A stretch of DNA of 64,000 nt from the NCBI GenBank assembly GCA_963729625.1, contig CAVSOU010000017.1:160001-224000 (forward strand). The letters run 5' to 3'. This stretch comes from an uncultured bacterium. Its GTDB lineage: Bacteria; Chloroflexota; UBA5177; JANWHV01. Below the pieces are notes generated by a model that was not told where the DNA came from, ran no database searches, and saw nothing but the letters and a program-made list of their open reading frames with translations. The translations under genes were made by a program, and so were the position numbers. Of this stretch, positions 1-14,117 are shown piece after piece (position 1 is the stretch's first letter; each line of letters opens with the position of its first letter).

Positions 1-1717
1 CGACCACGACCAGAATCTGGTCGGCGGCCAGGATCGTGGAAAGACGGTGGGCCACGGCGAGGGTAGTGCGGCCGGCCATGAGTGGCTGCAGAGCTCGTTG
101 TATGAAACGCTCGGAGTGCGTGTCGAGAGAGCTCGTCGCCTCGTCCAGAATGAGAATTCTGGGGTCTTTCAGGATCACCCTGGCGATGGCCAGCCGTTGC
201 TTCTCGCCGCCGGACATCCGGTAACCTCGCTCGCCAACAATCGTGTCGTATCCATCCGGCAATTCCATGATCCGGTCGTGGATATAGGCAGCTCGGGCGG
301 CGGCGATGACTTGCTCGTCGGAAGCGTCGGGGAGGCCGTACGTCAGGTTCGCGCGCACGCTCGCGTGCAGCAGGTAGGTCTCCTGCGTGACCATGCCGAG
401 ACTGCGACCCAGACTTTCCAGGGTGACGTCGCGCACATCGTGCCCATCGATCTCCAGGCTCCCCGAACCGACGTCGTAGAAGCGTGGAAGCAAGTAGGTG
501 GTAGTCGTCTTGCCGGCGCCGCTCGGCCCCACCAGGGCTACAAGCTGGCCCGGCTGGGCCTCGAAGTCGATATCGACCAAGGCCGGCTGGCCGGTCAGGT
601 ATTCGAAGCCCACATGCCGGTAGCGAATGTGACCTTGTACATCTGTCAGCTCTACCGCGCCGGGCCGATTGGTGATCTCGACCGGCAAATCCAGATACTC
701 GAAGATGCGATCGAAGAGAGCCAGAGCGCCCTGAATGTCGAGGTTCACACTCAACAGAGAGCCAAGTGGCATGAAGAGGCGGCTCTGCAAATTAGTAAAT
801 GCGACGAGGTAGCCCAGGCTCAGCGAGCCGCTGATTACCTGGCGTCCGCCAACGTAATAGATCAACGCCGGCGCGGCGGCGAAGAACGTCTGAATGAGCG
901 CCATGAACCAACGACCGATCATGTTCTGCCGCACCTGCAGCGCCATCAGCGTCTCGTTCTCGTTCGCGAACCGCTGCGTCTCTGCTTGCTGGCGGCCAAA
1001 GCTCTTCACGAGAAGCGCGCCGCTGACGCTGAGCGTCTCCTCCAGAATGGTGGAGATCTTTGCCAGCGAGACCTGCGTCTCCTTGCTCACGCCACGCCTG
1101 GTCTTGCCCATTTTGTACGTCGGGTAGAGGAACAGCGGAACGAGACACAATGACACGACGGTCAGCTTCCAGTTGACTTCCACCATGACGACCAGCGTGC
1201 TGACGACCACGACGATGTTGTTGATCGTCGAGCTGAACGTGCTGGTCACCACGCTCTGGACGCCGTTCACATCGTTATTCAGACGTGAGATAATCTCTCC
1301 CGTCTTGGTGGCGGTGAAGAATCGCAGCGACATGGCTTGCAGATGACCGTAGAGGCGCACCCGGAAATCGCGCATTACGCCCTGACCGATCGCCGTTGTC
1401 AAATACGTCTGCCCGACGCCGATCAGACCGCTGACTACCGGGGTGAAGAACATGATGGCAACGAGCACCGTCAGCTCGTTCACGTTCCGGTGGCCGAGCG
1501 CCTGATCGATGATCAGGGCCATCACCACCGGACTAACCAGGCCGAGGCCGGCGACGACAAGAATTGTCGCCAGGACCACCAGTGAGCGGCCGCCATAGGG
1601 GACAAAGGCCTGCACGACGCGCAGGAAGGTCCCACGTCGCGCGCGGTGGTCGGCCCCCTCGCGGACGCTCCTCATGGCCGCGCCCATGCCCATACCCATG
1701 CCGCCACCATGCATCAT
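1..1717 (-). CDS. ABC exporter, fused permease/ATPase (MdlB/MsbA-like); runs off the left edge
   Basis: Hand translation of the minus strand from ATG 1717 (MMHGGGMGMG...) gives TM segments, Walker A GPSGAGKTT, signature MSGGEKQR, Walker B ILILDEATSSLD and H-loop AHRLST. Absent from the ORF track because its stop is outside the window. Confidence 0.93.
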   Translation of the reverse strand, partial: MMHGGGMGMGMGAAMRSVREGADHRARRGTFLRVVQAFVPYGGRSLVVLATILVVAGLGLVSPVVMALIIDQALGHRNVNELTVLVAIMFFTPVVSGLIGVGQTYLTTAIGQGVMRDFRVRLYGHLQAMSLRFFTATKTGEIISRLNNDVNGVQSVVTSTFSSTINNIVVVVSTLVVMVEVNWKLTVVSLCLVPLFLYPTYKMGKTRRGVSKETQVSLAKISTILEETLSVSGALLVKSFGRQQAETQRFANENETLMALQVRQNMIGRWFMALIQTFFAAAPALIYYVGGRQVISGSLSLGYLVAFTNLQSRLFMPLGSLLSVNLDIQGALALFDRIFEYLDLPVEITNRPGAVELTDVQGHIRYRHVGFEYLTGQPALVDIDFEAQPGQLVALVGPSGAGKTTTTYLLPRFYDVGSGSLEIDGHDVRDVTLESLGRSLGMVTQETYLLHASVRANLTYGLPDASDEQVIAAARAAYIHDRIMELPDGYDTIVGERGYRMSGGEKQRLAIARVILKDPRILILDEATSSLDTHSERFIQRALQPLMAGRTTLAVAHRLSTILAADQILVVV

Positions 1718-1998
1718 GATCGCCACCATCTGTCGGTTGCGTGCTGTATCGGTAACCCCGGCCACGAATTGCCATCGTGGTCACCCGGACCGCTACGTTC
1801 ATCATAGGCGCTTCGTCGCATACGCCGTCGCGCCATGCTGCCGGGCAGTGCATGAAACTCTCGATATGATGTCGAGATAGCGATGCCAGCCATGGGTGTC
1901 GATGATGCCAGGGTAGCCCCGCGCGTCCAGTGCTCTGGTACAATGCCGGGAACCACGCCTCGTCGTTTTACCTTTTCACACGCATATGAGGTGCCGCC

Positions 1999-3276
1999 TT
2001 GCAGCTCAATCACGCATCACCCGAACAGCTTCGCCAATGGGAGCAGGAGCTTGCCGTCCGGTACGCCGGCTTTCGTCAGGCGAAGCTCAACCTGGATCTC
2101 ACTCGCGGCAAACCCTCGGGCAGCCAGCTATCGCTTTCCGATTCGCTCGACGGCCTGCTAGCAGGTGACTACAGGGCCCCGGATGGCACGGACACCCGCA
2201 ATTACGGCGGGCTCGACGGACTACCCGAGCTGAGAGCCCTGTACGCGCAGGTGCTCGGCGTGAAGCCGGACGAGGTTCTGATCGGTGGCAACAGCAGCTT
2301 GACGCTGATGCATCAGGTACTGACCTTTGCTCATTTCCTCGGCCTGCGCAAGCCGGAGGATGCCTGGGCGCCTCAAGGCAAGGTCAAGTTCATCGCCCTC
2401 GTGCCAGGCTACGATCGCCATTTCGCTATCTGCGAGCACCTCGGCATCGCCATGATCCCGGTAGCCATCGGCGCGGCGGGGCCGGATATGGACGAAGTGG
2501 AGCGATTGGTCGCCTCCGATCGGTCCATCAAAGGCATTTGGTGCGTGCCTCGCTTCTCCAATCCTTCGGGAGAAGTCTACGACCCCGCGGTAGTCGAGCG
2601 CATGGCCGCGCTTGGCAAGATTGCCGCGCCCAACTTCCTGATCATGTGGGACAACGCCTACGCGCTCCACGCCCTGGAGGATGATGCGCCCGAACTGGCC
2701 GGTCTGATGGACGCCTGCCGCCGCCAGGGCACGGAGAACAGCGTGATCATGTTTGGATCCACGTCCAAGGTCACCTTCTCCGGAGCCGGCGTAGCTTTCT
2801 CCGGCGCCTCGAAGGAGAACCTGGCGGCGCTCCGCAAGCACCTGAGCATCGTCACCATCGGTGCGGACAAGGTGAATCAGTTGCGGCATCTCAGGCTCAC
2901 ACCGGACCTCGAAGCCCTCAGGGCCCAAATGCGAAGGCATGCTGCTTTGCTCAAGCCCCGCTTCGACATGGTGCTCAGGCATTTGCGCGAGAACCTGGCC
3001 GGCTCCGGCATGGGCGACTGGACAGAGCCGAAGGGCGGCTACTTCATCTCCTTCAATGCGCTGCCCGGTCTTGCCAGGGACGTCGTGAGACTGGCGGCGG
3101 ATGCCGGCGTCAAGCTGACACCCGCGGGCGCCACCTGGCCATATGGCAAGGATCCCGAAGACAGGAACATCCGTATCGCGCCCAGCTTCCCGTCGTTGGA
3201 GGAGATCGACCGCGCCATGCAGGTCTTCGTGGTCTGCGTGCAGCTGGCCAGCGTGCGGCATAAGCTTGCGCGGTAG
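1999..3276 (+). CDS. PLP-dependent class I/II aminotransferase (aspartate aminotransferase-like)
   Basis: LDLTRGKP, RNYGGLDG, PGYDRHF, FSNPSG, WDNAY, STSKVT (PLP lysine), IRIAPS; GAGG upstream of a TTG start. Confidence 0.9.
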   Translation: MQLNHASPEQLRQWEQELAVRYAGFRQAKLNLDLTRGKPSGSQLSLSDSLDGLLAGDYRAPDGTDTRNYGGLDGLPELRALYAQVLGVKPDEVLIGGNSSLTLMHQVLTFAHFLGLRKPEDAWAPQGKVKFIALVPGYDRHFAICEHLGIAMIPVAIGAAGPDMDEVERLVASDRSIKGIWCVPRFSNPSGEVYDPAVVERMAALGKIAAPNFLIMWDNAYALHALEDDAPELAGLMDACRRQGTENSVIMFGSTSKVTFSGAGVAFSGASKENLAALRKHLSIVTIGADKVNQLRHLRLTPDLEALRAQMRRHAALLKPRFDMVLRHLRENLAGSGMGDWTEPKGGYFISFNALPGLARDVVRLAADAGVKLTPAGATWPYGKDPEDRNIRIAPSFPSLEEIDRAMQVFVVCVQLASVRHKLAR

Positions 3277-3304
3277 GCGACGACGAGGGCGCTCGGCAGG
3301 AATT

Positions 3305-3337
3305 CGGCTCCGGCGCGGCCAGCTAGCGCCGGAGCCG
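3305..3337 (+). terminator. GC-rich hairpin, probable terminator
   Basis: Perfect 12-bp stem CGGCTCCGGCGC/GCGCCGGAGCCG with a 9-nt loop, just after the aminotransferase stop; no U-tract. Confidence 0.55.
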
Positions 3338-4279
3338 GGCACGCTACTGTGGCGCGGCATTCGCTTCCGGTAGGAGTGGCGGCGCATCGTTGCCAGCAGG
3401 GCCGATCTCACCTTGCTTCCACTGTGGCCGGGATAGTGGGTATAGGACTCCGGCTCTGTTCGGCACGCGAAACCGGCCCCATCCGAACAGCCATATGCCT
3501 CTGGAATTCTGCTTGCGCCAACCACTGCCCGTAGCATCTCGACCAATTTGGATGTGCGGGCCCACCGCCAGCAGCGTGAAAGCGAGAGCCTCACTGCGAC
3601 AATGGGCCGGCTGGGAGAGCAGACGATGCCACACATGATCACATATGCAGGTGGGATGTATATTCAAGCACTGTTCCATGCATCGTAGTTACGGCCACCA
3701 GCTTCATGCATAGCTATGCGCAGCAGCGAATCGGCCAATCCTGGAGGCCTCGGCGCGCCCGCGCAACCAGCGCCGTCTTGCCAGGGATCCGCGCCGTGCT
3801 ACACTCGGCAGCCGAGCGTACGCCCTTCGGCCGTTACAAGACCATCTATTGCCCAGCCTGGCTCTACCGAGAAAGGCGCAGTCTTCGCTGCTTGAGAAGC
3901 CGCCGATCCGGATTGGGCCGTTGAGGCGGGAACGGAGGACCGAGACGCTGCCATGCCGGCTGGGCCTGCCCGGCTGCCTGCGGAGGAAGTGGCCATGGTT
4001 CCTCACTGTTCGAGGCGTGCCGAGCCGGCAGGCTGCACCCTACGCGCCACCGAGTAGTCCGCCCCAGCGCAAGTAGCCTAACCACGATCAGCCTAATCGT
4101 GCTTAGGTTAATCAGTGCCTGGCAAGACTCCTGACCGTAGCCGCGGCCGAAGGCGTTAAGCTGGTCGCCGTCGAGGATCTCTACGAGACTCGCTGGGCGC
4201 AGCCGATCTCGAGATCCGGCACCGGCAGGCCGTACGCGCCGAGTGAGAAGGAAAGCTCGCCGCCGTGGTGCAGGCACCA

Positions 4280-4699
4280 CTATGAACTGGTTGTCGCTTG
4301 TGCGCGGAGGCGTTCCTCATTCTCCTTGAGCTCCGGCGTGAGCGCATCGCCGAAATCTGCAGCCTCGAACACGGGGCGAATCTCAATCTCGTCACCGTCG
4401 GCAAATGGGGCGCGCTTGATCCATTCGATTGCCTCTTCCCTGGACTTCACCTGCCACAACCAGAAACCGGCTACCAGCTCTTTGGCTTCGGCGAAAGGGC
4501 CATCGATGACGGTCTGTTTCCCGCCGGAGAACCTGACGCGAGCGGCTTTCGATGAAGGATGTAGCCCCTCACCTGCGAGCAGCACGCCTGCTTTGACCAA
4601 TTCTTCGTTGAACTTGCCCATGGCCGTAAGCAGCTTCTCGTCCGGCATGGCGCCCGCCTCGTAGCCTGCGTTGCCCTTGACCAAAACCATGACCTTCAT
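4280..4699 (-). CDS. YciI/DGPF-domain protein
   Basis: MKVMVLVK...FNEELVKAGVLLAGEGLHPSS...VIDGPFAEAKELVAGFW...EIEIRPVFE. Confidence 0.92.
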   Translation of the reverse strand: MKVMVLVKGNAGYEAGAMPDEKLLTAMGKFNEELVKAGVLLAGEGLHPSSKAARVRFSGGKQTVIDGPFAEAKELVAGFWLWQVKSREEAIEWIKRAPFADGDEIEIRPVFEAADFGDALTPELKENEERLRAQATTSS

Positions 4700-4774
4700 T
4701 GCTGAACTCCTCCTGCATGCTGCGCCGGGATCCCAGACTACCTTGACCGGCTGAACCCTCGCTCTACGTAGTAC

Positions 4775-4801
4775 GTCGAACAAGGAACGACGAAATCGAC
4801 A
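4775..4801 (-). promoter_or_regulatory. ECF42-type sigma promoter upstream of the DGPF gene
   Basis: Minus strand TGTCGA-N17-CGAC about 75 bp upstream of the start; matches the TGTCGA / CG(A/T)C motif described for ECF42 targets, which are DGPF genes. Confidence 0.65.
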
Positions 4802-5196
4802 AGCTCAGTATCCTTGTCTGATCTAAACGTAGCTCACCGCAAGCTGTGCCGCTTGGACGACGGCGGCAGACAGGTCCCTCGCGCTCATCAGGCCTCCATC
4901 GAACGCGCAAGTGAGCTGTACCTGCGTACGGCCTGGTAGCCACGATTCGCCGCGATACGGCCTTTTGCACTCTTGACAGCGTGCTTGGTGATGGTCAGAA
5001 TGCGAACCAAAGGACGCAGGAGGATGTCTCCCGTGGTGTTACCGGCTTGTGGCGAGACGAGGCCCTGACGGCCAGGTTGAATGGCTGCCCGCAGCAGCCT
5101 GATGACGTATCAGATGAGAGTTGAGACGGCGCGGAGCCATGCGACGTGCCTGGTGATGAGCCGGCAGGATGTGGCCATGCCGGGGAGAGTGCAACG

Positions 5197-5964
5197 ATGA
5201 CCGATACCCTCCGCACGATCCACCAATTGCGCAGCATTCACGGCGATTTTTCGGAACGAGAGATCTCGACCGACGACTTGACGACGATCCTCAACGCTGC
5301 GGTCAGGGCGGCTACGGCCTCGGCGCGGCAGAGTTACTCCATTATCGTCATCGATGATAAGCTCGTGATGCGCGAGTACCTCTCTTATGTCGGCAGCAAG
5401 GCACTGTTGTTCTGCGTGGACTTCACGCGCATCGCCGACACGGCAGCCCTTCTGGGTCATCCCTATGAAGTACCGGAGATTCTGGGCTTTATCACCGGCA
5501 GTTCAGACACGATCCTTGCCGCCCAAACCGCCGCGATCGCGGCGAAGTCACTCGGCATCGACTCCCTGTTTACCAATAGCGTGCACCGGTTGGATCTGCG
5601 TCAACTCTATGAGCATTTCCAGCTGCCCGAGCGCCACTGCTTCCCACTCATCGCGCTGATCCTGGGCTACCCGCAGTATGAGCCGAGCGATCGGGTCGAG
5701 CGTTTGACGGGCCCCGGCGTGATTCACTTCGACCACTATTCACGTATGACCAGAGAAGAAATGGGCGATCTCATCCAAGCCTTCGACGATCCTGACGAGC
5801 ATCTGGGCATGAGCTCCAATTGGCGCGAGCTGGGGTACGGCCATTACCTGGACTGGTACTACTCTGCCTGGGATGGTTCCGGTTTTCCCACCGACAAGCT
5901 GTCGGAGTTGTACACGGTGCTGGGAGAGGCTGGCTTTGTGCGGAAAGCAATGGCTAGCCGGTAG
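5197..5964 (+). CDS. Nitroreductase family protein (NfsA/FRP-like)
   Basis: LRSIHGDFS, AATASARQSYSIIV, DTILAAQTAAIAAKSLGIDS, LPERHCFPLIALILGYP. Confidence 0.85.
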   Translation: MTDTLRTIHQLRSIHGDFSEREISTDDLTTILNAAVRAATASARQSYSIIVIDDKLVMREYLSYVGSKALLFCVDFTRIADTAALLGHPYEVPEILGFITGSSDTILAAQTAAIAAKSLGIDSLFTNSVHRLDLRQLYEHFQLPERHCFPLIALILGYPQYEPSDRVERLTGPGVIHFDHYSRMTREEMGDLIQAFDDPDEHLGMSSNWRELGYGHYLDWYYSAWDGSGFPTDKLSELYTVLGEAGFVRKAMASR

Positions 5965-5978
5965 GAGAGATCGCCCCT

Positions 5979-6740
5979 TCATAAAGAACATTTCGATTGC
6001 CGCCGCATGAAACGGAAGAACTCATCGTGCTGCCGCAGTGTGTCCAGCACAAGATCCGCGCCGGTCTCCTGCAGCTGCCGGGAGGAGTAGGCGCCGGTCG
6101 CGACCGCCACCACCTGGATGCCCGCGGCTCTCGCGCACGCCACATCGCGGGGTGAGTCTCCCACGATGAAGAACTGCTCCAGGGCAAAATCCCGTCCGAG
6201 AATCTTTTGAGCTTTCTTCTGGGCGATAGGTACCAGGTCCGCTCGCGAGGAGGCCATGCAGCCAAACGCGCCAAAGGCGAAGAAGTCTTTGAGACCGGCG
6301 CGTTCCATCTTGGTCCAGCCGATGCTCTCCTCGTTTCCCGTGAGCAGCCCGAGGGGCCGGCCCTCGTCGTGAAGCCGTTGCAGCAAGGCCGAGACGCCGT
6401 CGAGCACGATATACTCGGCCTCGTCGCGGTGCGCAGCGAAGTACTCCGACATCGCGGCCATCGCGGCGTCTATTCCAGCACGCGCTTGCTGCTCGGTGCC
6501 GCCGTTGAGCACGACCATCTCGGCAATGATCTGGGTGTCGATCATCCCGTGCATGGATATGCCCGCCACCAGCGGATCCACGATGCCGTAGACACATCGC
6601 AGCGCGTGGAAAAAGGCGCGTCGGTGCACGATGTTGCCGCCTGCGAGCAAGGTACTGTCGATGTCGAACAAGGGGATAGCGATCGCATGGATGCCGGTAT
6701 CGCCAGGCGTCTCCCCAAGTATCACAGTTGTACCCTTCAT
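5979..6740 (-). CDS. HAD-superfamily hydrolase (phosphatase-like)
   Basis: Motif I FDIDSTL, LLTGN, FGAFG, motif IV VGDSPRDV; start uncertain. Confidence 0.85.
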   Translation of the reverse strand: MKGTTVILGETPGDTGIHAIAIPLFDIDSTLLAGGNIVHRRAFFHALRCVYGIVDPLVAGISMHGMIDTQIIAEMVVLNGGTEQQARAGIDAAMAAMSEYFAAHRDEAEYIVLDGVSALLQRLHDEGRPLGLLTGNEESIGWTKMERAGLKDFFAFGAFGCMASSRADLVPIAQKKAQKILGRDFALEQFFIVGDSPRDVACARAAGIQVVAVATGAYSSRQLQETGADLVLDTLRQHDEFFRFMRRQSKCSL

Positions 6741-6859
6741 GTTTGCCGATCGTGAGAGGTGAATGCCCCCCACCGTGAAACCCTCGTACCCGCATGGTGT
6801 ACTGCAGAGCCCTCGTCCGCGCATACGACGGTAGTATGGTCCATGCCAGCACCGACCAG

Positions 6860-7940
6860 CGTCATCGCCGTGTCGATCGCCAATGGCCTATCGAGGGCCT
6901 TTGCCAACCGGCCAATGGCAAGGTAGTCAGGCCGAAAGGCATGGCCCCACAGACTGAGGCAGTGCGCCTCGTCAACCACCAGCAGCGCGACGCCGACGCA
7001 CCGCAAAGCGTGTAGCAACCTGGCGTGACGTAGCCGCTCTGGGGCCACATACTCCAGATTGTACGCGCCGTCCGCCATCCGGCAAAGCCGGTTCTTGAGT
7101 TCCTCAGCTGGCAGTGTGCTGTTGATCACGCAGGCCCTGCTCGGCGAGGGCCGGAACATCGGCCAGCCCCACTATCTGATCGGCCATCAGCGCGACAAGC
7201 GGCGAGACGACGAGTACGACGCCTGGGAGCACCAATGCCGGTAGCTGGAAGCAGAGGGACTTTCCCGCGCCTGTTGGCAACATGGCCAGCGTGTCTTTGG
7301 CATCGCTCAGAACCGACCTGAGCACCGCGGCTTGACCGGGCTTGAACGAGCCGTGGCCATAGTGCTCAAACAGGATGCTTGCCAGGTCATCACGCGGAAC
7401 CTCGTCCGCCTCGACGGTCATCTGAGCGAGGCGGTCCGCCCCGGGTGGCGCGCTATGGCCGGACGCAACCAAGCGTGGAGCCGAGCTAGCCTGAGTGCGG
7501 CTCCACGCGGACCGACGAGGCGCTGCACGTGTCTCAGCCAGCTTCGCACGCAGGTGTTCGGCCAGCACCCTGAGCGCGTCGCGGGACGCGGCTTCCGTCG
7601 ACTCGCGGTCTTCGGGACACAGCTCTAGCAGTCTGCGAAGTAGTGCCGGCTTGGCGTCAGTACCGCAGATCTGGATGGTGCCACGCAGCACACCGGCGGC
7701 ACCGGCAACATCACCCGCCTGGTCCGGGACGTCAGCGAGGCCGCGCAGCGCCTCAATGTGATCCGGGCGCATTGCCAGCGCTTCGCGGAATTCTTGCTCC
7801 GCTTCGTCCAGGGGCTTGCGTGCGAGCGCGATGAGACCACGCGCGGCGGCCGGGGCAACCGATCACGGCCCCGCGACGGACTCGATGCCGCACGCTGTCT
7901 CAGCCGCCGTGTCCAGATTGCCAGCGGCAAGATGGTCATG
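6860..7940 (-). pseudogene. Degraded TPR-RecQ-family helicase
   Basis: TPR-like helices (EAEQEFREALAMRPDHIEALRGLA) with an in-frame TGA near 7860. RecQ motifs follow: FKPGQ, LPTGAGKSLCFQLPA, VVSPLVALMADQ. After a frameshift near 7135 come YVAPERL and VVDEAHCLSLWGHAFRPDY; the gene stops before motif III and HelicC. Confidence 0.85.
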
Positions 7941-8005
7941 CAGCAGTATCATGCGCGGCAAGTAACTATCCCGCGCTTGCCGGCGCAGCTCGGCGCACGC
8001 CAGAG

Positions 8006-8243
8006 CTATTTGGAGACGAAGTACGGTAAGTCATCCTTCTTGGCAAAGCCAGATAGCTGCCCATCCGGGCTGACGCGAATATCGACCAGACGCTGGATAT
8101 CGTGTTGGCACAGCAGACCGAAAAAGCCTTCGGCGCGCTTCTGAGTAAAGCCGATAGTATATGGACTGTAACGATGCGATCTTCAGCAAGTGTTTGATCG
8201 CTTCAATGAACCAATCGCGCGTCATGACTGCCGCATAATCAAC
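8006..8243 (-). pseudogene. Fragments of two DUF488-family genes fused by deletion
   Basis: 8243-8165 reads VDYAAVMTRDWFIEAIKHLLKIASLQ (DUF488 internal segment). In another frame 8161-8006 reads YTIGFTQKRAEGFFGLLCQHDIQRLVDIRVSPDGQLSGFAKKDDLPYF (DUF488 N-terminus), ending at a premature TAG. Confidence 0.7.
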
Positions 8244-8263
8244 GAACTGTCAACTACTTTACA

Positions 8264-8298
8264 TTGACATCTAGAAGTTTTGTTCTAGAATATTCTAG
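8264..8298 (+). promoter_or_regulatory. Sigma70-type promoter overlapped by palindromes
   Basis: TTGACA (8264-8269)-N16-TAGAAT (8286-8291); perfect palindrome CTAGAATATTCTAG at 8285-8298; three TCTAG copies in an AT-rich patch. Confidence 0.65.
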
Positions 8299-8344
8299 CA
8301 AGGATGTACTACGTAGTGGCAGCGGATGCCAAGGAGTGGGGACC

Positions 8345-8881
8345 ATGCATGAGGATGCGATCATCGCCGAGGTGGCCCACCGGATGGGCGTTTCGGAAGA
8401 ACGACTGCGCGCGAGGGACCGCACTCCGCACGTGGCTGCCGCGAGGCACGCTGCATTCTGGGCTCTCAACCGGGCAGGGCTCAATCCAGCCCAGATCGCT
8501 CGCTATCTTGGTCTCAACCACTCTACCGTCGTCCACGGCTTGGCGCGCGCCGAGCAGCATCCGGAGTGGCGCGCCCTAGTGGCCCCGGCCATTCAACAGG
8601 TGAGCGCTGGCGGGGAGCGGCAGGCGACCAAGGCGCGGCTCATTCACGAGCTGCGCGCGGCGCCGCTATTGGAGCGCCGCGCAATCAGCGACTATGTTAC
8701 CTGCACCATTCTGGGATGGGAACGCCATGCAGGCAGCTCCTGTGCATACGGGCTGTGGCTGCTGCTCCACCGGCCCTGGTACCGGGCCGCCGTGGAAAAC
8801 GCGTTGCGTCATTCCGACCTGGAGCATGAGATCGGGCGCATTGATCTCCATGCTACTCGTCTCGGGTACCGGGCCAGCTGA
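8345..8881 (+). CDS. Stand-alone DnaA domain IV (Bac_DnaA_C-like HTH) protein with an unknown C-terminal domain
   Basis: IIAEVAHRMGVSEERLRARDRTPHVAAARHAAFWAL...IARYLGLNHSTVVHGL aligns by eye with the DnaA domain IV pattern (R..R....ARQ.AMYL...IG..FGGRDHTTV.H); no AAA+ domain; GGAG upstream. Confidence 0.8.
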   Translation: MHEDAIIAEVAHRMGVSEERLRARDRTPHVAAARHAAFWALNRAGLNPAQIARYLGLNHSTVVHGLARAEQHPEWRALVAPAIQQVSAGGERQATKARLIHELRAAPLLERRAISDYVTCTILGWERHAGSSCAYGLWLLLHRPWYRAAVENALRHSDLEHEIGRIDLHATRLGYRAS

Positions 8882-8996
8882 CGTCAGCCTTCTGCCTCTG
8901 CTCGCTGGGCCAGTGAGTCGCGAGATTCTCCTAGACTAGGTAGGGCTGGTTATCGATGGCGCCAATCGATGCCCACTGGCGGTCTCGCGTCGACGA

Positions 8997-9980
8997 TTAC
9001 CACAGGTGATGCACCTGACTGCGGATGTCGCGATCGTAGATTTCCTGCACCGCGCGCATAGTCTCTTCGCTTAGAGGCGGCAGATCCGCCGCGCGCGCGT
9101 TGGATTCTGCCTGCTCCGCCGTCTTGGCTCCGGGGATCGCGCAGGTGACGGCATCGAACATCAGGATCCAGCGTAACGCCAGTTGCGCCAGGGTAGCGCC
9201 GGCCGGCACATTCCGTTTCAGTTCTTCCGCCGCGCGCAGGCCGCTCTCGAAGTCCACGCCGGAGAACGTTTCGCCGCGGTCAAACTGCTCGCCATGTCTG
9301 TTCGTGACACGGTGGTCGTCGGGATCGAAATGCCGATCACGCGTCATCTTGCCGCTGAGCAGACCGCTGGCTAGCGGCACGCGAGCCAGAATGCCCACAT
9401 TGTTCTGCTTTGCCTGCGGGAACACCTGCTCAACAGGCTTCAAGCGGAACATGTTGAAAATGATCTGGATCGTGGCCACGCCGGGATAGCGCATAGCTGC
9501 CACAGCCTCTTCGGTGGTCTCCACGCTCACGCCGTAGTTCTGGATCTTGCCGTCACGCTTGAGATCGTCCAGCGCGGCAAACGTGGCCGCATTGTCGTAG
9601 GTAGCGCGCGGCGGGCAGTGTAGCTGCACGAGGTCCAGCGCCTCGACGTCCAGGTTCCGCAACGACCGCTCAACGAAGGCTGTGAGGTTCTCCTTGTTAT
9701 AGCCCGCGGCTGTATGGGGATCGAGTCGCCTGCCGGCCTTCGTCGCCACGAAGATCTGCTCACCACGTTCCTTCAGCAACTGCCCGACCAGCCGTTCACT
9801 GCGCCCGTCGCCGTAGACGTCGGCCGTATCGACGAAGTTCACGCCCACGTCCACTGCCCGCCGCAGCGCCGCCAGCGACGTCCGGTCGTCGACCTCGCCC
9901 CAAGACCCACCGATCGCCCATGCGCCAAAGCTGATTGTCGAGACCTCGAAGCCTGTTTTCCCCAATGTCCGGTACTGCAT
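8997..9980 (-). CDS. Aldo/keto reductase
   Basis: GVNFVDTADVYGDGRSE, ATKAG, DLVQLH, GVSVE, PLASGLLSGK, AIPGAKT. Confidence 0.95.
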   Translation of the reverse strand: MQYRTLGKTGFEVSTISFGAWAIGGSWGEVDDRTSLAALRRAVDVGVNFVDTADVYGDGRSERLVGQLLKERGEQIFVATKAGRRLDPHTAAGYNKENLTAFVERSLRNLDVEALDLVQLHCPPRATYDNAATFAALDDLKRDGKIQNYGVSVETTEEAVAAMRYPGVATIQIIFNMFRLKPVEQVFPQAKQNNVGILARVPLASGLLSGKMTRDRHFDPDDHRVTNRHGEQFDRGETFSGVDFESGLRAAEELKRNVPAGATLAQLALRWILMFDAVTCAIPGAKTAEQAESNARAADLPPLSEETMRAVQEIYDRDIRSQVHHLW

Positions 9981-10304
9981 GTCTTTCACCTCCTCTCACC
10001 AGTCTACGGCCTATTGCACGCGCGCGTGCCGCCGCTCTCACCAAAGAGGCGGCATAGCCCCACATTGCGAAGAGTGTCCTTCCGCTTCGAAGCGGCCGTA
10101 AGGAGGCACATCGACTGATCCAACCCACCAGACCCCTCCCCTGGTCGGCTTTATCCAGCCCGCCCTGTGCACACGGCATGTACGCACGTCTACCGCTCCA
10201 CCGACCCCAAAGTTGCACATTTGCAACGCCAGGGGCCGCTGACTGCCCCAGTTCGTTATGCCTGTGTATACTTATGCATAGCCTGGTGACTGGTCGCGCA
10301 GGTA

Positions 10305-10333
10305 TTGACGAAAACGCAATGGGCCGTTATGCT
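10305..10333 (+). promoter_or_regulatory. Sigma70-type promoter of the XRE-rep operon
   Basis: TTGACG-N17-TATGCT ending 33 bp before the XRE start; inverted repeat GTTGCA-N4-TGCAAC at 10212-10227 further upstream. Confidence 0.65.
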
Positions 10334-10366
10334 ACTCCGCAATGAGGCAGGCCGGAGAGGGGGCGG

Positions 10367-10762
10367 ATGCACGAGTCGAAGTCCTTCGGTGTGTTGCTTC
10401 AGGACTTCCGCGCGAGGCTCGGTATGGCCCAGAACGCGCTGGCGCGGGCGTCCGGCATCAACGTCGGCACGGTCAACCGCATCGAGCGCGACCAGCGGCT
10501 TCCGGCCGGCCGGGATCAGGCGTTGGCCCTTGCGCGTGCGCTGGGTCTGGATATGGCCCAAACGAATCAGCTGCTCCATGCCGCCGGGCTCCCTGCGGAG
10601 GGCTTTGGTCCAGCGATCACGAGCGATCCACGGATGTGCCGGCTGGCGCTGGTGTTGCAGGATCCGTTCTTGCCATCAGCGGTGCGCGAGGAGTTGATTG
10701 CCGTCATCGATCATGCGGTGCTTCTGGCCACGCACGACCGCGGCCATGCGGCTGGCGCCTGA
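10367..10762 (+). CDS. XRE-family HTH transcriptional regulator
   Basis: FGVLLQDFRARLGMAQNALARASGINVGTVNRIERDQRLP...LARALGL; stop is 1 bp before the rep start (TGA-C-ATG). Confidence 0.88.
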   Translation: MHESKSFGVLLQDFRARLGMAQNALARASGINVGTVNRIERDQRLPAGRDQALALARALGLDMAQTNQLLHAAGLPAEGFGPAITSDPRMCRLALVLQDPFLPSAVREELIAVIDHAVLLATHDRGHAAGA

Positions 10763-10763
10763 C

Positions 10764-11702
10764 ATGCCGCGAGGCGACGACTTCTCTTCCGGACCATACG
10801 ATCTGAGCGTGCCACCAGACTGGAGCGCGTTTCCCGGGCTATATCCTCCGCTGTATACGCAGACGCCCGACGTCTTCTTTGACTGGGTGGCCCCGTTCTT
10901 GCCGGAGATCGAGCTTCGCGTCCTGCTCTACCTCATCCGCCGCACGCTGGGCTTCAAGAAGCAGGGTGACCAGATAACCATCGACCAGATTGCCGGCGGC
11001 ATCGTTACCCGCGAGGGAGTGCGCCTGGACTGGGGCGCACAGCTCGGCGAGCGCAGCGTGCAGCGTGCGCTCGCCGGCCTGGAAGGCAAGGGACTGATCG
11101 AGCGGCACAAGCAGCTGGACCCAGATCGGGGGTGGCGGCCCAGCTACATCCGCCTGAGACTCTGCAACGAGGCCGGACAGGACTGGCAGACGCGACCGCA
11201 CCAGTCGGGCCCACCTGTCTCCCCAGGCACCAGGGAGGTGTCCAGCAAGTCACCTGCCACTCGTCGCGCCAGACACCAGACTGGTGTCCCGCTGGGCGTC
11301 TCCGTCTCTCAGACAGCAGATGTCAGCAAGGACACCTACAAGATAGAGAGATCTCTCTATACAGATCAGCAAGAAACAGTAGCGCCCGACCCCTCACAAG
11401 AGAAAGCAGATCGAGGGCTTGATGTGGCGTATAGTGCAATCTGGGACAGCATTAAGAGTGAGCTGGCTACGATCCTAGCGCCTTCGGTCTACCAGAGCCG
11501 CGTGGCCCCGACGTACCAGCGAGGTTCCGACGAAGCCGGGAGGATTGTGGTGCAGTGCCCGGACGGAGCCACAGGTCGGTGGCTGGAGCGCCAGCTCGGC
11601 CGGACGATTCGGGAAATTCTCCACACGCTCTCCGGAGGATCGTGTGCGATCAGCTTTACTGCAGAGAGTAACTCACAGATTCCCGATCAAGGGCATAGCT
11701 GA
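10764..11702 (+). CDS. Putative replication initiator: lambda-O-like winged-helix N-terminus plus C-terminal DnaA domain I
   Basis: YTQTPDVFFD...ELRVLLYLIRRTLGFKKQGDQITIDQI...SVQRALAGLEGKGLI (phage replication protein O-type), a polar linker, then IWDSIKSELATILAPSVYQSRVAPT...IVVQCPDGATGRWLERQLGRTIREIL (DnaA_N pattern). Confidence 0.8.
   Translation: MPRGDDFSSGPYDLSVPPDWSAFPGLYPPLYTQTPDVFFDWVAPFLPEIELRVLLYLIRRTLGFKKQGDQITIDQIAGGIVTREGVRLDWGAQLGERSVQRALAGLEGKGLIERHKQLDPDRGWRPSYIRLRLCNEAGQDWQTRPHQSGPPVSPGTREVSSKSPATRRARHQTGVPLGVSVSQTADVSKDTYKIERSLYTDQQETVAPDPSQEKADRGLDVAYSAIWDSIKSELATILAPSVYQSRVAPTYQRGSDEAGRIVVQCPDGATGRWLERQLGRTIREILHTLSGGSCAISFTAESNSQIPDQGHS
11213..11337. repeat. Iteron-like array of degenerate palindromes (consensus WGGTGTC-N6-GACACCW) inside rep
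   Basis: Copies start at 11213, 11236, 11259 and 11282 (exact 23-bp period), then 11300 (N5 spacer) and 11318; followed by the perfect palindrome ATAGAGAGATCTCTCTAT at 11343-11360. Confidence 0.7.
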
Positions 11703-11976
11703 ACTCAGCGGAGTGGGCAAGCCGAGCAAGCGAAGCTATCAACAAGGACCACGGCCGTACCGGGGCCGCGAAACGCGTAAACGGGGCAGTCACAGCGGAT
11801 AGTCGCGTTCGACGTGCGTCCGTAAAGACCCACGGCACCCGAGGAAGGAGAACCATTGTGCTGGGGCCGTGAATATCTTGCTGTCCGGATGCAGATAGGA
11901 CGCCATGGCGGTGTCGCGCGAGTGACCCTGTCGGCTTGGAGGTATGTAGTCGGGAAGGACGCGCGAGGTGGGCGGC

Positions 11977-12861
11977 CTAACCTCCGTGGGGCTCGACGGG
12001 GAGATCTGCCTGGGCGCCCCACTCGTTCCAGCTGCCGTCGTAGTTGGTCAGGTGGGTATAGCCGACCAGACTGAGGGCGAAGAGCACACTGGTGGCGGCC
12101 ACGCCCCCATTGCAATAGGCGATTATCTGCTGGTCGGGCAGCAGTCCGGCCGCGGTCGCGGCGTGCAGTAGCTCGGTGTTGGAGCGGAAGCGCCCGCTGT
12201 CATCCAGGAAGATCTCGCGCGGCAGATTGACGGCGCCGGGGATATGCCCGCCACGCGGTCCACGCTGCACGGCGTTGGTATACTGGGCCTCGTCGCGGGC
12301 GTCTGCCAAGCGAATATCTGGCCGGCCAAGAGCGGCCAGGACCTGCTGGGCAGTGGCACGCCACTGTGGGCGCGTGCGGGGAGTGAATGCGGCTGCGGGG
12401 TAGAGCGGGACGGCCGTGGTTACAGGCCTGCCCTCGCGTTGCCAGCGCGGCCAGCCACCATCGAGGACACGGACGTTGTCGTGGCCATAGTAGCGGAGGA
12501 CCCACCAGAGACGGGTAGCAAACTGGCTGGCAGGGTGGTCATCGTAAGCGACAACGGTCGTCGCGTCGCCGATGCCAACGCCGCCGAGAATCGTGGCCAA
12601 ACGGGCAGGCGGCGCCACCTGCGCGGGAACAGGGTCGTCGAGATCGACGATGTCCTTGGTCCAGTCGAGGTAAACAGCCCCTGGGATATGCGCCGCAGCG
12701 TAGGCATCAGGCAGGCCGAGATACGTAGCATGCTGCATGCGGCCGTCAGTGGTGCTGCGGACCACGCCGCGCATGTCTACGATGCGGATGTCGGGGTTTT
12801 CGAGATGCGCGGCCAGCCACTCAGGGTCTGCTAACCAGGCATCGCGGCCTTCCTGTACCAT
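11977..12861 (-). CDS. Tandem-domain rhodanese / sulfurtransferase (SseA-like)
   Basis: HIPGAV twice, RLWWVLRYYGH, LDGG, active-site YCNGGVAA, NYDGSWNEW. Confidence 0.93.
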   Translation of the reverse strand: MVQEGRDAWLADPEWLAAHLENPDIRIVDMRGVVRSTTDGRMQHATYLGLPDAYAAAHIPGAVYLDWTKDIVDLDDPVPAQVAPPARLATILGGVGIGDATTVVAYDDHPASQFATRLWWVLRYYGHDNVRVLDGGWPRWQREGRPVTTAVPLYPAAAFTPRTRPQWRATAQQVLAALGRPDIRLADARDEAQYTNAVQRGPRGGHIPGAVNLPREIFLDDSGRFRSNTELLHAATAAGLLPDQQIIAYCNGGVAATSVLFALSLVGYTHLTNYDGSWNEWGAQADLPVEPHGG

Positions 12862-13169
12862 GTACCTCTCCAATCGTCATATCCGGCTAGTTGTGCGGCG
12901 CGGTTCGGCTATGCAAGCCGGGGGAGCCGCCTTGGTAGGCAGTCTACCAAGCGTCCGTGCTCTTTGGAGACGGGATTGCGATCACTCCGGCAACACGACG
13001 TCCTGCACGCTAGCGGTGACCTCTGAGGGTATCTGTTGTGCCTGTGTTTCAGGAGCCCAGAGCGCTTGGTATTGTCGCAGTAGAGGCGTGAGCGGGTACG
13101 ATGAGGAGAAATGAGCACAGCGCACGTTTGCACGGCCTCGGCAACACCCAGATCCTTCAGGAGTTCTAG

Positions 13170-14117
13170 ATGCCGGTAAAGATCCCCGATTCGCTCCCAG
13201 CCATGGGCATTCTCGAAAGCGAAAACATCTTCGTGATGGGCGAGAACCGTGCGGTGCATCAGGACATCCGCGCGATCAAGATCGCCATATTGAACCTGAT
13301 GCCCACCAAGATCGTGACCGAGACACAGATTCTGCGTCTGCTCGGTAATTCGCCGATCCAGGTGGAGATAGAGCTCGTGCATATGGAAAGTCACGAATCG
13401 AAGAACACGCCCGTGGAGCACCTGTTGAGGCATTATTCCACGTTCAGCGAGATTCGGGACAACAACTACGACGGACTGATAATCACCGGCGCACCCGTGG
13501 AAACCCTAGCCTTCGAGGAGGTTGATTATTGGGATGAGCTCAAGAGCGTCATGGACTGGGCGCAAACGCACGTGTATTCGACGTTCTACATCTGCTGGGG
13601 CGCTCAGGCCGGCCTTTACCATTACTACGGCATCCCAAAGTACCCTCTTTCCAAGAAGATGTTCGGCGTGTTTCCCCACCACGTTCACGTGCGCTTCGAG
13701 CGGCTAGTACGCGGCTTCGACGATGTGTTTTACGCGCCACACTCGCGCCACACCGAGGTACGGCGAGAGGATATTCTCGCAGTGCCCGACCTCGTCCTGC
13801 TTTCGGAATCCGACGAGGCCGGTGTCTACATCGTGCTCTCTGCCGATCGCCGGCATATCTTTGTGACCGGCCACTCGGAGTACGATCCCCTGACGCTGCG
13901 CGGTGAGTACCTGCGAGACGTACGCAATGGGCTACCGATCGAGGTGCCGCGGAACTACTTCCCCGCAGACGATCCGTCACGGGAACCTCTGGTGCGCTGG
14001 CGCGGGCACTCCAACCTGCTCTACTCCAACTGGCTGAACTACTATGTCTATCAGCAGACACCCTACGATCTCAGTGAGATCCCGGCAAGCCACGGCGGCG
14101 TCCGGTCGGATCCCTGA
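13170..14117 (+). CDS. metA: Homoserine O-acyltransferase (MetA family; probably acetyl-CoA specific)
   Basis: [24 protein letters not shown] (Glu at the specificity position), [35 protein letters not shown]. Confidence 0.96.

Follow-up and report, generated by a model that had tools for sequence, protein, structure and literature searches.

A lambda-O-type winged helix joined to a DnaA domain I fold in a Chloroflexota protein, and a candidate replication origin inside its gene

In the genome of an uncultured bacterium of the Chloroflexota (GenBank assembly GCA_963729625.1), we identified a gene for a protein of 312 amino acids that joins an N-terminal winged helix of the lambda O family to a C-terminal domain with the fold of DnaA domain I. 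The gene lies in a stretch of 64,000 nt, hereafter called the window (contig CAVSOU010000017.1, positions 160,001 to 224,000 of the forward strand); positions given without a contig are those of the window, and the features discussed are collected in Table 1. Directly upstream is a gene for a regulator of the XRE family, and the DNA coding for the inter-domain linker holds conserved palindromic repeats followed by A-rich repeats. On balance, the sequence evidence set out below inclines us to read the two genes as a compact, self-contained lambda-type iteron replication module, conserved among related soil Chloroflexota, which would have its origin inside the initiator gene.

Domain composition of the initiator protein

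The ATG start of the open reading frame (ORF) at 10764 agrees with the N-termini of 34 orthologues, which begin at or near the motif MPRDDDF. A longer reading from a TTG at 10698 is possible; the ATG is preferred because of these orthologues, and because the upstream gene stops 1 nt before it. A search of 1.84 billion cluster representatives returned 2397 relatives at E ≤ 0.001; close orthologues (57–77% identity) come from Chloroflexota metagenomes. When the query and the 146 best of these relatives (147 proteins) were scanned for domains, Phage_rep_O was matched by 143 and DnaA_N by 26, at E ≤ 1e-3. The query's own Pfam scores are below the cut-offs, so that homology rests on the relatives and on structure.

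Phage_rep_O (PF04492) matches the query with an E-value of 0.024 (15.6 bits; curated cut-off, 28.7), and the match to NCBIfam TIGR01610 is weak (17.8 bits; cut-off, 45.5). PHROG families 678 and 345 (“replication initiation O-like”) match at 4.7e-7 and 2e-6, and the homologue in another Chloroflexota genome, G286, scores 36 bits for PF04492, above the cut-off. AlphaFold, supplied with an alignment of 147 rows, models residues 20–135 at a pLDDT above 90, and this model matches winged-helix DNA-binding domains (CAP, MarR, LexA) at Z scores of 8–10 in VIA-align. Its matches in BFVD are phage “GpO N-terminal” (E = 4.9e-7) and replication-initiator models. The domain is exceptionally conserved: 86 of the 112 positions between residues 23 and 134 are invariant in the 34 orthologues. 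It is followed by a linker (residues ~140–216) predicted to be disordered.

The match of the C-terminus to DnaA_N (PF11638; E = 0.0078, 16.4 bits; cut-off, 24.6) extends over residues 225–286 and profile positions 2–63 of 65. A profile of the 34 orthologues matches domain I of Bacillus subtilis DnaA (4TPS_B) over its full length (E = 2.6e-4), and a profile of 46 two-domain proteins matches the DnaA N-terminus in 389 of 401 Chloroflexota genomes at about 1e-20, a tally that takes in six unpublished genomes (G018, G055, G226, G271, G175 and G343), on which none of the further results depends. Residues 220–300 are modelled by AlphaFold at a pLDDT above 90, in the KH-like topology α-α-β-β-α-β. The best Foldseek matches are chains of 4tps (template modelling (TM) score 0.86–0.87, root-mean-square deviation (rmsd) 1.5–1.6), followed by Helicobacter pylori DnaA domain I and DciA; VIA-align, which is independent of Foldseek, aligns 84 of 84 residues with 4tps_D (Z 14.3, rmsd 1.8 Å). 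According to an iterated profile of the C-terminal domain, it stands at the extreme C-terminus of 42 of the 146 best relatives (one of these being a 93-aa fragment) and is absent from all 50 O-like ORFs taken from viral contigs of IMG/VR, which are the closest relatives of the N-terminal domain. The initial annotation of this DNA had proposed an O-type winged helix followed by DnaA_N; the profiles of the relatives, AlphaFold, Foldseek and VIA-align bear this out, and the KH-like domain I fold on which that proposal turned is present, with the Z and TM scores just given.

Only eight positions of the C-terminal domain are invariant among the 34 orthologues, and the residues known from other bacteria to contact partners are worth a closer look. 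In the parts of the published work on which we draw, domain I of B. subtilis DnaA is described as recruiting DnaD via Thr26, Trp27 and Phe49 (PMC10201431), and in Escherichia coli Glu21 and Phe46 of domain I bind DnaB while Trp6 is critical for self-association (PMC5448010). The equivalent of E. coli Trp6, in helix 1, is Trp in all 34 orthologues, in 45 of 51 distant fused relatives and in both host DnaA proteins (in the set of 51, four to seven rows are gapped at the aligned sites, partly from four sequences trimmed too short). At the equivalent of B. subtilis Trp27, by contrast with the Trp of both host DnaAs and of 31 of the 51 distant relatives, 32 of the 34 orthologues have Arg. The site of Phe46 (E. 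coli) or Phe49 (B. subtilis) is Ala in 27 of the 34 orthologues, Phe in both host DnaAs, and Phe, Leu, Tyr or Trp in 34 of the 51; that of E. coli Glu21 is Val in 33 of the 34. Judged by these residues, the wider two-domain family looks able to imitate the recruiting surface of DnaA, whereas the orthologue group has lost the partner-binding surface and kept the Trp face of self-association. With the one lost and the other kept, direct recruitment of a helicase or an adaptor is rated unlikely in this group, and for its C-terminal domain we would prefer pairing with itself, or with host DnaA.

Conserved repeats in the linker-coding DNA

The linker is variable as a protein, with islands conserved as DNA, the hexamers GACACC and GGTGTC. 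In an alignment of seven non-redundant orthologues (64–85% nucleotide identity), we considered the columns in which the residue never varies although its codon could: one and the same codon is used throughout in 13 of 20 such columns in the linker, in 12 of 107 in the N-terminal domain and in none of 24 in the C-terminal domain (13 of 20 versus 12 of 131 elsewhere; Fisher p = 1.1e-7, a value that overstates independence since the seven orthologues are kin). An overlapping gene was rejected as the cause of this synonymous conservation, every alternative frame being stopped in at least one of the seven.

The half-sites (Table 1) make up two 17-bp palindromes, GACACC-N5-GGTGTC, one perfect (11272–11288) and one with a single mismatch (11226–11242), and a direct repeat, CAGACACC, recurs at a period of 23 nt, with a further copy at 11331. 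As 23 is not a multiple of three, the same DNA word is read in different codon phases (0, 2, 1 and 0 for the GACACC copies) and encodes different peptides (DTREVS, RHQxGV, DTYK), for which reason peptide conservation cannot account for the conserved repeats. The perfect palindrome GACACC-N5-GGTGTC occurs once in the 5.4-Mb genome. Directly downstream of the iterons are two to three A-rich repeats, candidates for an unwinding region, which use A-rich codons (CAA GAA ACA) in a genome of 63% G+C: they read CAAGAAACAG in most orthologues, and in some this holds for all three copies (CAAGATAGAG, CAAGAAACAG and CAAGAGAAAG in the window). The intragenic iterons and A-rich repeats strengthen the reading of the protein as an initiator. 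Rfam gave no match at E ≤ 1 between 9500 and 12500. A perfect 18-bp palindrome, ATAGAGAGATCTCTCTAT, is located at 11343–11360, between the last iteron and the A-rich repeats; it occurs in this genome only and not in the orthologues.

Two-domain genes of similar size are found in other Chloroflexota families (G286, G346, G202, G021, G045, G067 and G078), and a longer paralogue in G003. The layout of the linker is shared by those of G286, G346, G078, G021, G045 and G067 and by the G003 paralogue (contig C537), each with its own iterons, that is, repeated and partly palindromic words, after which come tandem A-rich 10–13-mers, e.g., ACAACAAACAG, ACAAGAAACAG and ACAACCAACAG. In seven of eight two-domain genes, the 60-nt window of lowest GC falls in the linker. 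The linker-coding parts (4,887 nt) of 13 of 15 two-domain genes contain between them 26 copies of the word CAAN[AC]AACAG, and the remaining 10,920 nt of the same 15 genes not one, against a background of 53 in 10.8 Mb (genome, both strands); the word was defined after inspection of these same sequences, seven rows of which belong to one genus and four to another, so that there are about four independent lineages. The peptide motif PQxTxxQxT in the family consensus is a consequence of the A-rich DNA repeat.

More distant paralogues were also encountered. In our own genome (G000), a 478-aa protein (C10:655692-657128), encoded next to the end of the valyl-tRNA synthetase gene, carries a pair of O-like winged helices in tandem, with a DnaA_N-like domain at its C-terminus. 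For the similar 593-aa protein of G003 (C537), the DNA encoding the linker contains an extended array of 24-nt repeats (GACTACCAGGGnGTC).

The proposed replication module and its rivals

By analogy with lambda O, dimers of the N-terminal winged helix would bind the GACACC-N5-GGTGTC iterons of the linker-coding DNA, and the duplex would open at the adjacent A-rich 10-mers. The C-terminal copy of DnaA domain I would be a protein–protein module, through which the initiator on its DNA contacts itself or the host machinery for initiation, and the XRE protein would probably repress the operon at palindromes in the promoter region.

The initiator orthologue is single-copy and syntenic in all five genomes of the genus, with an XRE homologue directly upstream in each; in the 16 other genomes of the class, a search with the query found at most distant relatives of the N-terminal domain. 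Homologues of the XRE protein (37–43% identity) also directly precede the two-domain gene in G346, G021, G045, G067 and G202, by which the XRE–initiator pair is present in three Chloroflexota families; the upstream gene is a different one in G286 (TetR) and for the G003 paralogue (MerR). Both hexamers of the promoter-like site before the operon are kept in all five aligned orthologous upstream regions, and the palindromic block GTTGCA-N4-TGCAAC, with changes, in four of the five. The site GACACC is absent from the promoter region in the five alignments, which makes it unlikely that the intragenic repeats are promoter operators. Since selection has maintained the protein and the sites jointly, in the same syntenic location throughout the genus, we think that the module is probably in use, whether as an additional origin or as that of a secondary replicon.

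A relation with a large replicon is suggested by G286, an assembly of two contigs with its only dnaA at bases 103–1440 of contig C1. The two-domain gene is on C2 (1,074,634 bp), at 1,028,358–1,029,461, and C2 has no dnaA. Cumulative G−C along C2 has a single maximum (598,887) and a single minimum (1,026,661), the latter 1.7 kb from the two-domain gene, and just 0.7% of the positions of C2 are as low as this gene. The skew of C1, as sampled, is only roughly that expected for an origin at dnaA. We tentatively entertain the wider possibility that the family replicates megabase secondary replicons, or serves extra origins, without DnaA boxes, the initiator of the genus coupling to the two host DnaAs by domain I pairing and not by recruitment of a helicase adaptor.

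Several observations weigh against a working origin, besides the kinship of the aligned orthologues and the way in which the A-rich word was defined. The trough of the C2 skew is a plateau of ~120 kb, and G+C is 64% on C2 versus 44–52% in 19 of 20 samples of C1 (the exception, a 20-kb sample at 1.9 Mb, has 65%); the two contigs may come from two organisms, or hold a large foreign segment. A replication signal is missing from our own genome: on the contig that carries the gene (C17), skew reaches its global minimum elsewhere than at the initiator gene, and neither GC skew nor the strand bias of coding (genes called crudely by GC3) shows more than a weak local switch near 170 kb. The same measures are flat at the genome's own dnaA genes (on C7, C11 and C10), and are therefore uninformative here. 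In the 64 kb of the window there is no cluster of DnaA boxes (three matches with at most one mismatch, versus 4.45 expected), the sole match inside the gene (11617–11625) falling where the aligned orthologues show no residue conservation. Ordinary metabolic genes surround the locus, partition genes are absent nearby, and a ParB gene was found on neither C17 nor C2 of G286. Finally, the conserved intragenic sites could instead serve regulation.

This last thought leads to a domesticated or relic module, in which the protein would be a site-specific DNA-binding regulator, the repeats its regulatory or silencing sites, and no replication would start. It would suit the chromosome-like metabolic surroundings without partition genes, the pairing with an XRE regulator, the loss of the partner-binding aromatics of domain I in the orthologue group, the silence of the own genome as to replication, and the name “helix-turn-helix transcriptional regulator” given to one orthologue in one source. 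We nevertheless think it improbable: the genome has no second copy of the palindrome GACACC-N5-GGTGTC, and hence no regulon; the sites are ~900 nt downstream of the promoter, whose conserved palindrome is a different one; iterons followed by A-rich direct repeats have the layout of an origin, which recurs with other iterons in other lineages; and a homologue lies at the point of lowest skew in a 1.07-Mb contig lacking dnaA. The replication module could also act in another way than by self-pairing of its initiator. The initial annotation had held that domain I binds the host replicative helicase directly, with no need of a P-like or DnaC-like partner. The domain I fold is indeed firmly present, that of E. 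coli binds DnaB in the portion of PMC5448010 referred to above, and most distant relatives keep the aromatic pair (31 and 34 of 51), which makes a recruiting role plausible for the wider family. No P-like or DnaC-like gene follows the initiator gene, as had also been noted, and no other loader or helicase gene, the next gene being a rhodanese gene on the opposite strand; on one actinobacterial megaplasmid, the gene of an O-like relative that lacks domain I does precede genes for an AAA ATPase and a DnaB-like helicase. The orthologue group itself speaks otherwise, with Val (33/34), Ala (27/34) and Arg (32/34) at the partner sites where the host DnaAs keep Trp and Phe. The host moreover has genes for a DnaD-like and a DnaI/DnaC-like protein, and a domain I from such a background is reported, in the section of PMC10201431 cited, to recruit DnaD and not the helicase. 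The lack of a following loader gene does not single out the fused form either: among 47 viral O-like loci without domain I (next three ORFs each, 135 downstream ORFs, Pfam at E ≤ 1e-6), DnaB_C or IstB_IS21 was found downstream in just two. Direct loading of the helicase is thus an unlikely role for the protein of this orthologue group.

A third role for the C-terminal domain would be to pair, through its Trp face, with domain I of host DnaA, by which it might bring DnaA and the DnaD/DnaI pathway to the origin, or titrate DnaA, coupling the origin to chromosomal initiation. The Trp6 equivalent, invariant in the orthologues and present in both host DnaAs, is consistent with such pairing, as is the match of the C-domain profile to Chloroflexota DnaA N-termini at ~1e-20; with no cluster of DnaA boxes at the locus, DnaA could arrive only by protein contact. 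In one genome of the genus, G004 (contig C12), a 352-aa DnaA paralogue without domain I (Bac_DnaA and Bac_DnaA_C) is encoded directly downstream of the orthologue. This arrangement is peculiar to G004, however, a rhodanese gene following the initiator gene in G000, G002 and G003, and self-association of domain I is, as far as the cited part of PMC5448010 goes, established for E. coli and S. coelicolor only. As a specific account of the origin's firing, pairing with DnaA is to our minds doubtful, and the compact iteron module with an internal origin, whatever its partner, is the reading with which we continue.

The host genes that bear on these roles form an operon, rplI–dnaB (449 aa)–DnaD-like gene (PF07261)–DnaI/DnaC-like AAA+ gene (IstB_IS21), at C10:148843-152132 of G000. 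By its gene content, this would be a Firmicutes-style helicase-loading set in a Chloroflexota genome; DciA was not found in this genome, which is 87% complete. The dnaA genes of G000 comprise two full-length copies and a paralogue without domain I (C7:296273-297658, C11:898416-899789 and C10:917839-918852), and G004 has a like set, with a full dnaA on the same 1.63-Mb contig C12, 10.5 kb from its other end. The tRNA genes of G000 are unevenly spread: 32 are on C7 and C10 together versus eight on C8 and C11, of similar total size. This spread and the dnaA set might point to two or more DnaA-dependent replicons, or else to a mixed bin (contamination, 5%). C17 carries none of 43 tRNA genes, versus ~2.6 expected, which is not significant.

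The megaplasmid of Thermomicrobium roseum was considered as a possible carrier of a relative and set aside: two domain profiles found none in bp 1–14000, and tblastn gave no match to it in the plasmid collection. In the part of the source consulted, the skew origin of this megaplasmid is placed near a “multiple substrate aminotransferase” (PMC2615216).

Known systems and surroundings of the gene

In phage lambda, the origin (ori-lambda) consists of palindromic iterons and then an A/T-rich stretch, in the part of gene O that encodes the inter-domain linker. The Chloroflexota protein is like lambda O in having an N-terminal winged helix of the same family (PF04492), and its gene like ori-lambda in the succession of palindromic iterons and an A/T-rich stretch in linker-coding DNA, as far as can be read from sequence. 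It differs in its C-terminal domain, which is a copy of DnaA domain I and not a P-binding domain, and no P-like gene follows; the locus is no phage but lies among metabolic genes, syntenic within the genus, and the partner gene encodes an XRE regulator. With DnaA domain I (PF11638; PDB 4TPS of B. subtilis, 2WP0 of H. pylori and 2E0G of E. coli), the C-terminal domain has in common fold, topology and the Trp of helix 1, besides its sequence homology to the N-termini of Chloroflexota DnaA. Unlike it, it is C-terminal and in a protein without an AAA+ domain, with Arg, Ala and Val for the equivalents of Trp27, Phe49 (E. coli Phe46) and Glu21 in the orthologue group.

The fusion of a winged helix with DnaA_N is as such already catalogued, in phages and in clusters of the ESM Atlas. 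Two BFVD entries have the same two-module plan, A0A0K2CNV5 (“putative replicon initiation protein” of Brevibacillus phage SecTim467, winged helix and DnaA_N) and A0A6J5SN45 (“DnaA N-terminal domain containing protein”), and structural alignments to them span both domains (354 and 362 columns, respectively). Atlas clusters named “DnaA-like protein” combine HTH_36 or DUF7833 with DnaA_N, the latter in 80–96% of members, in Actinomycetota, Bacteroidota and Uroviricota; they are a lead, with no alignment. The N-terminal domains of these phage and actinobacterial proteins are mostly HTH_36 and not Phage_rep_O, and the proteins are known by annotation only; the Chloroflexota form, by contrast, is chromosomal or chromid-borne.

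The initiators RepE, π, TrfA and RctB (of Vibrio chromosome 2) are similar in outline, being, in the excerpts cited, winged-helix proteins with iterons at a period of ~22–23 nt and adjacent A/T-rich repeats (PMC6090056, PMC4980987), and the Chloroflexota initiator, too, may serve a megabase replicon without dnaA. No sequence relation to them was found, and here the candidate origin is inside the gene, with no DnaA boxes and no partition genes nearby. The DnaA-like-I and -II replicases of Rhodobacterales are plasmid and chromid initiators named for their likeness to DnaA (PMC9025767, in the passage citing Petersen et al. 2011), and the initial annotation had offered them as a possible precedent. 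This found no support: in tblastn with the whole initiator protein against 72,556 plasmid records (E ≤ 1e-3), no Rhodobacterales record was matched. One actinobacterial megaplasmid record was matched among these plasmids, while our own gene is not on a recognisable plasmid or phage. The record, the sole plasmid relative, is the 816-kb plasmid of Miltoncostaea oceani (NZ_CP064357.1, 787117-791868), with an O-like “replication protein” that has no C-terminal domain of the present kind; in that plasmid, after the O-like gene come one for an AAA ATPase and a long one for a DnaB-like helicase, a full module in the style of lambda or P22 on a megaplasmid.

Our literature search, which covered titles and the beginnings of abstracts, turned up no study of a Phage_rep_O/DnaA_N or winged-helix/DnaA_N initiator. 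What is new, as the sequences present it, is the Chloroflexota XRE–initiator module with a readable putative internal origin, vertical inheritance among metabolic genes and a possible role in megabase replicons. The initiation of secondary chromosomes and chromids has been worked out for very few lineages (RctB of Vibrio, RepABC), and none was found for Chloroflexota in the literature searched; since both the binding sites of the present candidate and its probable unwinding element can be read from sequence, the hypothesis is directly testable. The protein also presents DnaA domain I as a portable module on an initiator other than DnaA, and the contrast between relatives that keep the aromatics and an orthologue group that loses them could help to tell apart what domain I does in self-association and what it does in recruitment.

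Table 1. Features of the initiator locus, in positions of the window
Feature	Position	Strand	Basis
Palindrome GTTGCA-N4-TGCAAC, upstream of the promoter; putative operator for the XRE-family regulator	10212..10227		Upstream alignment
Promoter-like site (TTGACG, 17 nt, TATGCT) before the XRE–initiator operon	10305..10333	+	Consensus scan
XRE-family (HTH_31/HTH_3) regulator gene; stop 1 nt before the initiator ATG	10367..10762	+	Pfam HTH_31, 2.5e-10
Initiator gene, 312 aa: O-type winged helix, disordered linker, DnaA-domain-I-like domain	10764..11702	+	ORF, Pfam, PHROG, orthologues, AlphaFold, Foldseek, VIA-align
N-terminal winged-helix domain, ~residues 20–135	10821..11168	+	pLDDT >90, winged-helix matches (Z 8–10), conservation
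Iteron array (candidate)	11226..11336		Codon alignment, synonymous-site invariance
Iteron half-sites	GGCACC 11226, GGTGTC 11237, GTCACC 11249, GACACC 11272, GGTGTC 11283, GATGTC 11319, GACACC 11331		
A-rich direct repeats, candidate unwinding region: CAAGATAGAG 11339, CAAGAAACAG 11370, CAAGAGAAAG 11397	11339..11406		Repeat analysis
C-terminal DnaA-domain-I-like domain, ~residues 223–300	11430..11663	+	Pfam, profiles, AlphaFold, Foldseek, VIA-align
Small protein with little beyond the DnaA domain IV helix-turn-helix	8264..8881	+	Pfam Bac_DnaA_C, 1.6e-10

The metabolic neighbours in the window include genes for an aspartate aminotransferase, a YCII protein, a nitroreductase, a HAD hydrolase and an aldo-keto reductase, and, besides the rhodanese, for a homoserine O-succinyltransferase and a gluconolactonase; there are no tRNA genes within its 64 kb. 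The small protein with DnaA domain IV precedes the XRE–initiator pair in the same order in all five genomes of the genus, 2–3 kb upstream of the module in the four others, and was not found within 10 kb of the module in G346, G045, G067, G021, G202 and G286. On the minus strand at 6737–7772, overlapping ORFs of 140 and 222 aa match different parts of DEAD-box helicase profiles, and the gene looks frameshifted or split. Between 26001 and 32000, G+C is 0.69–0.73, versus ~0.63 in the rest of the window.

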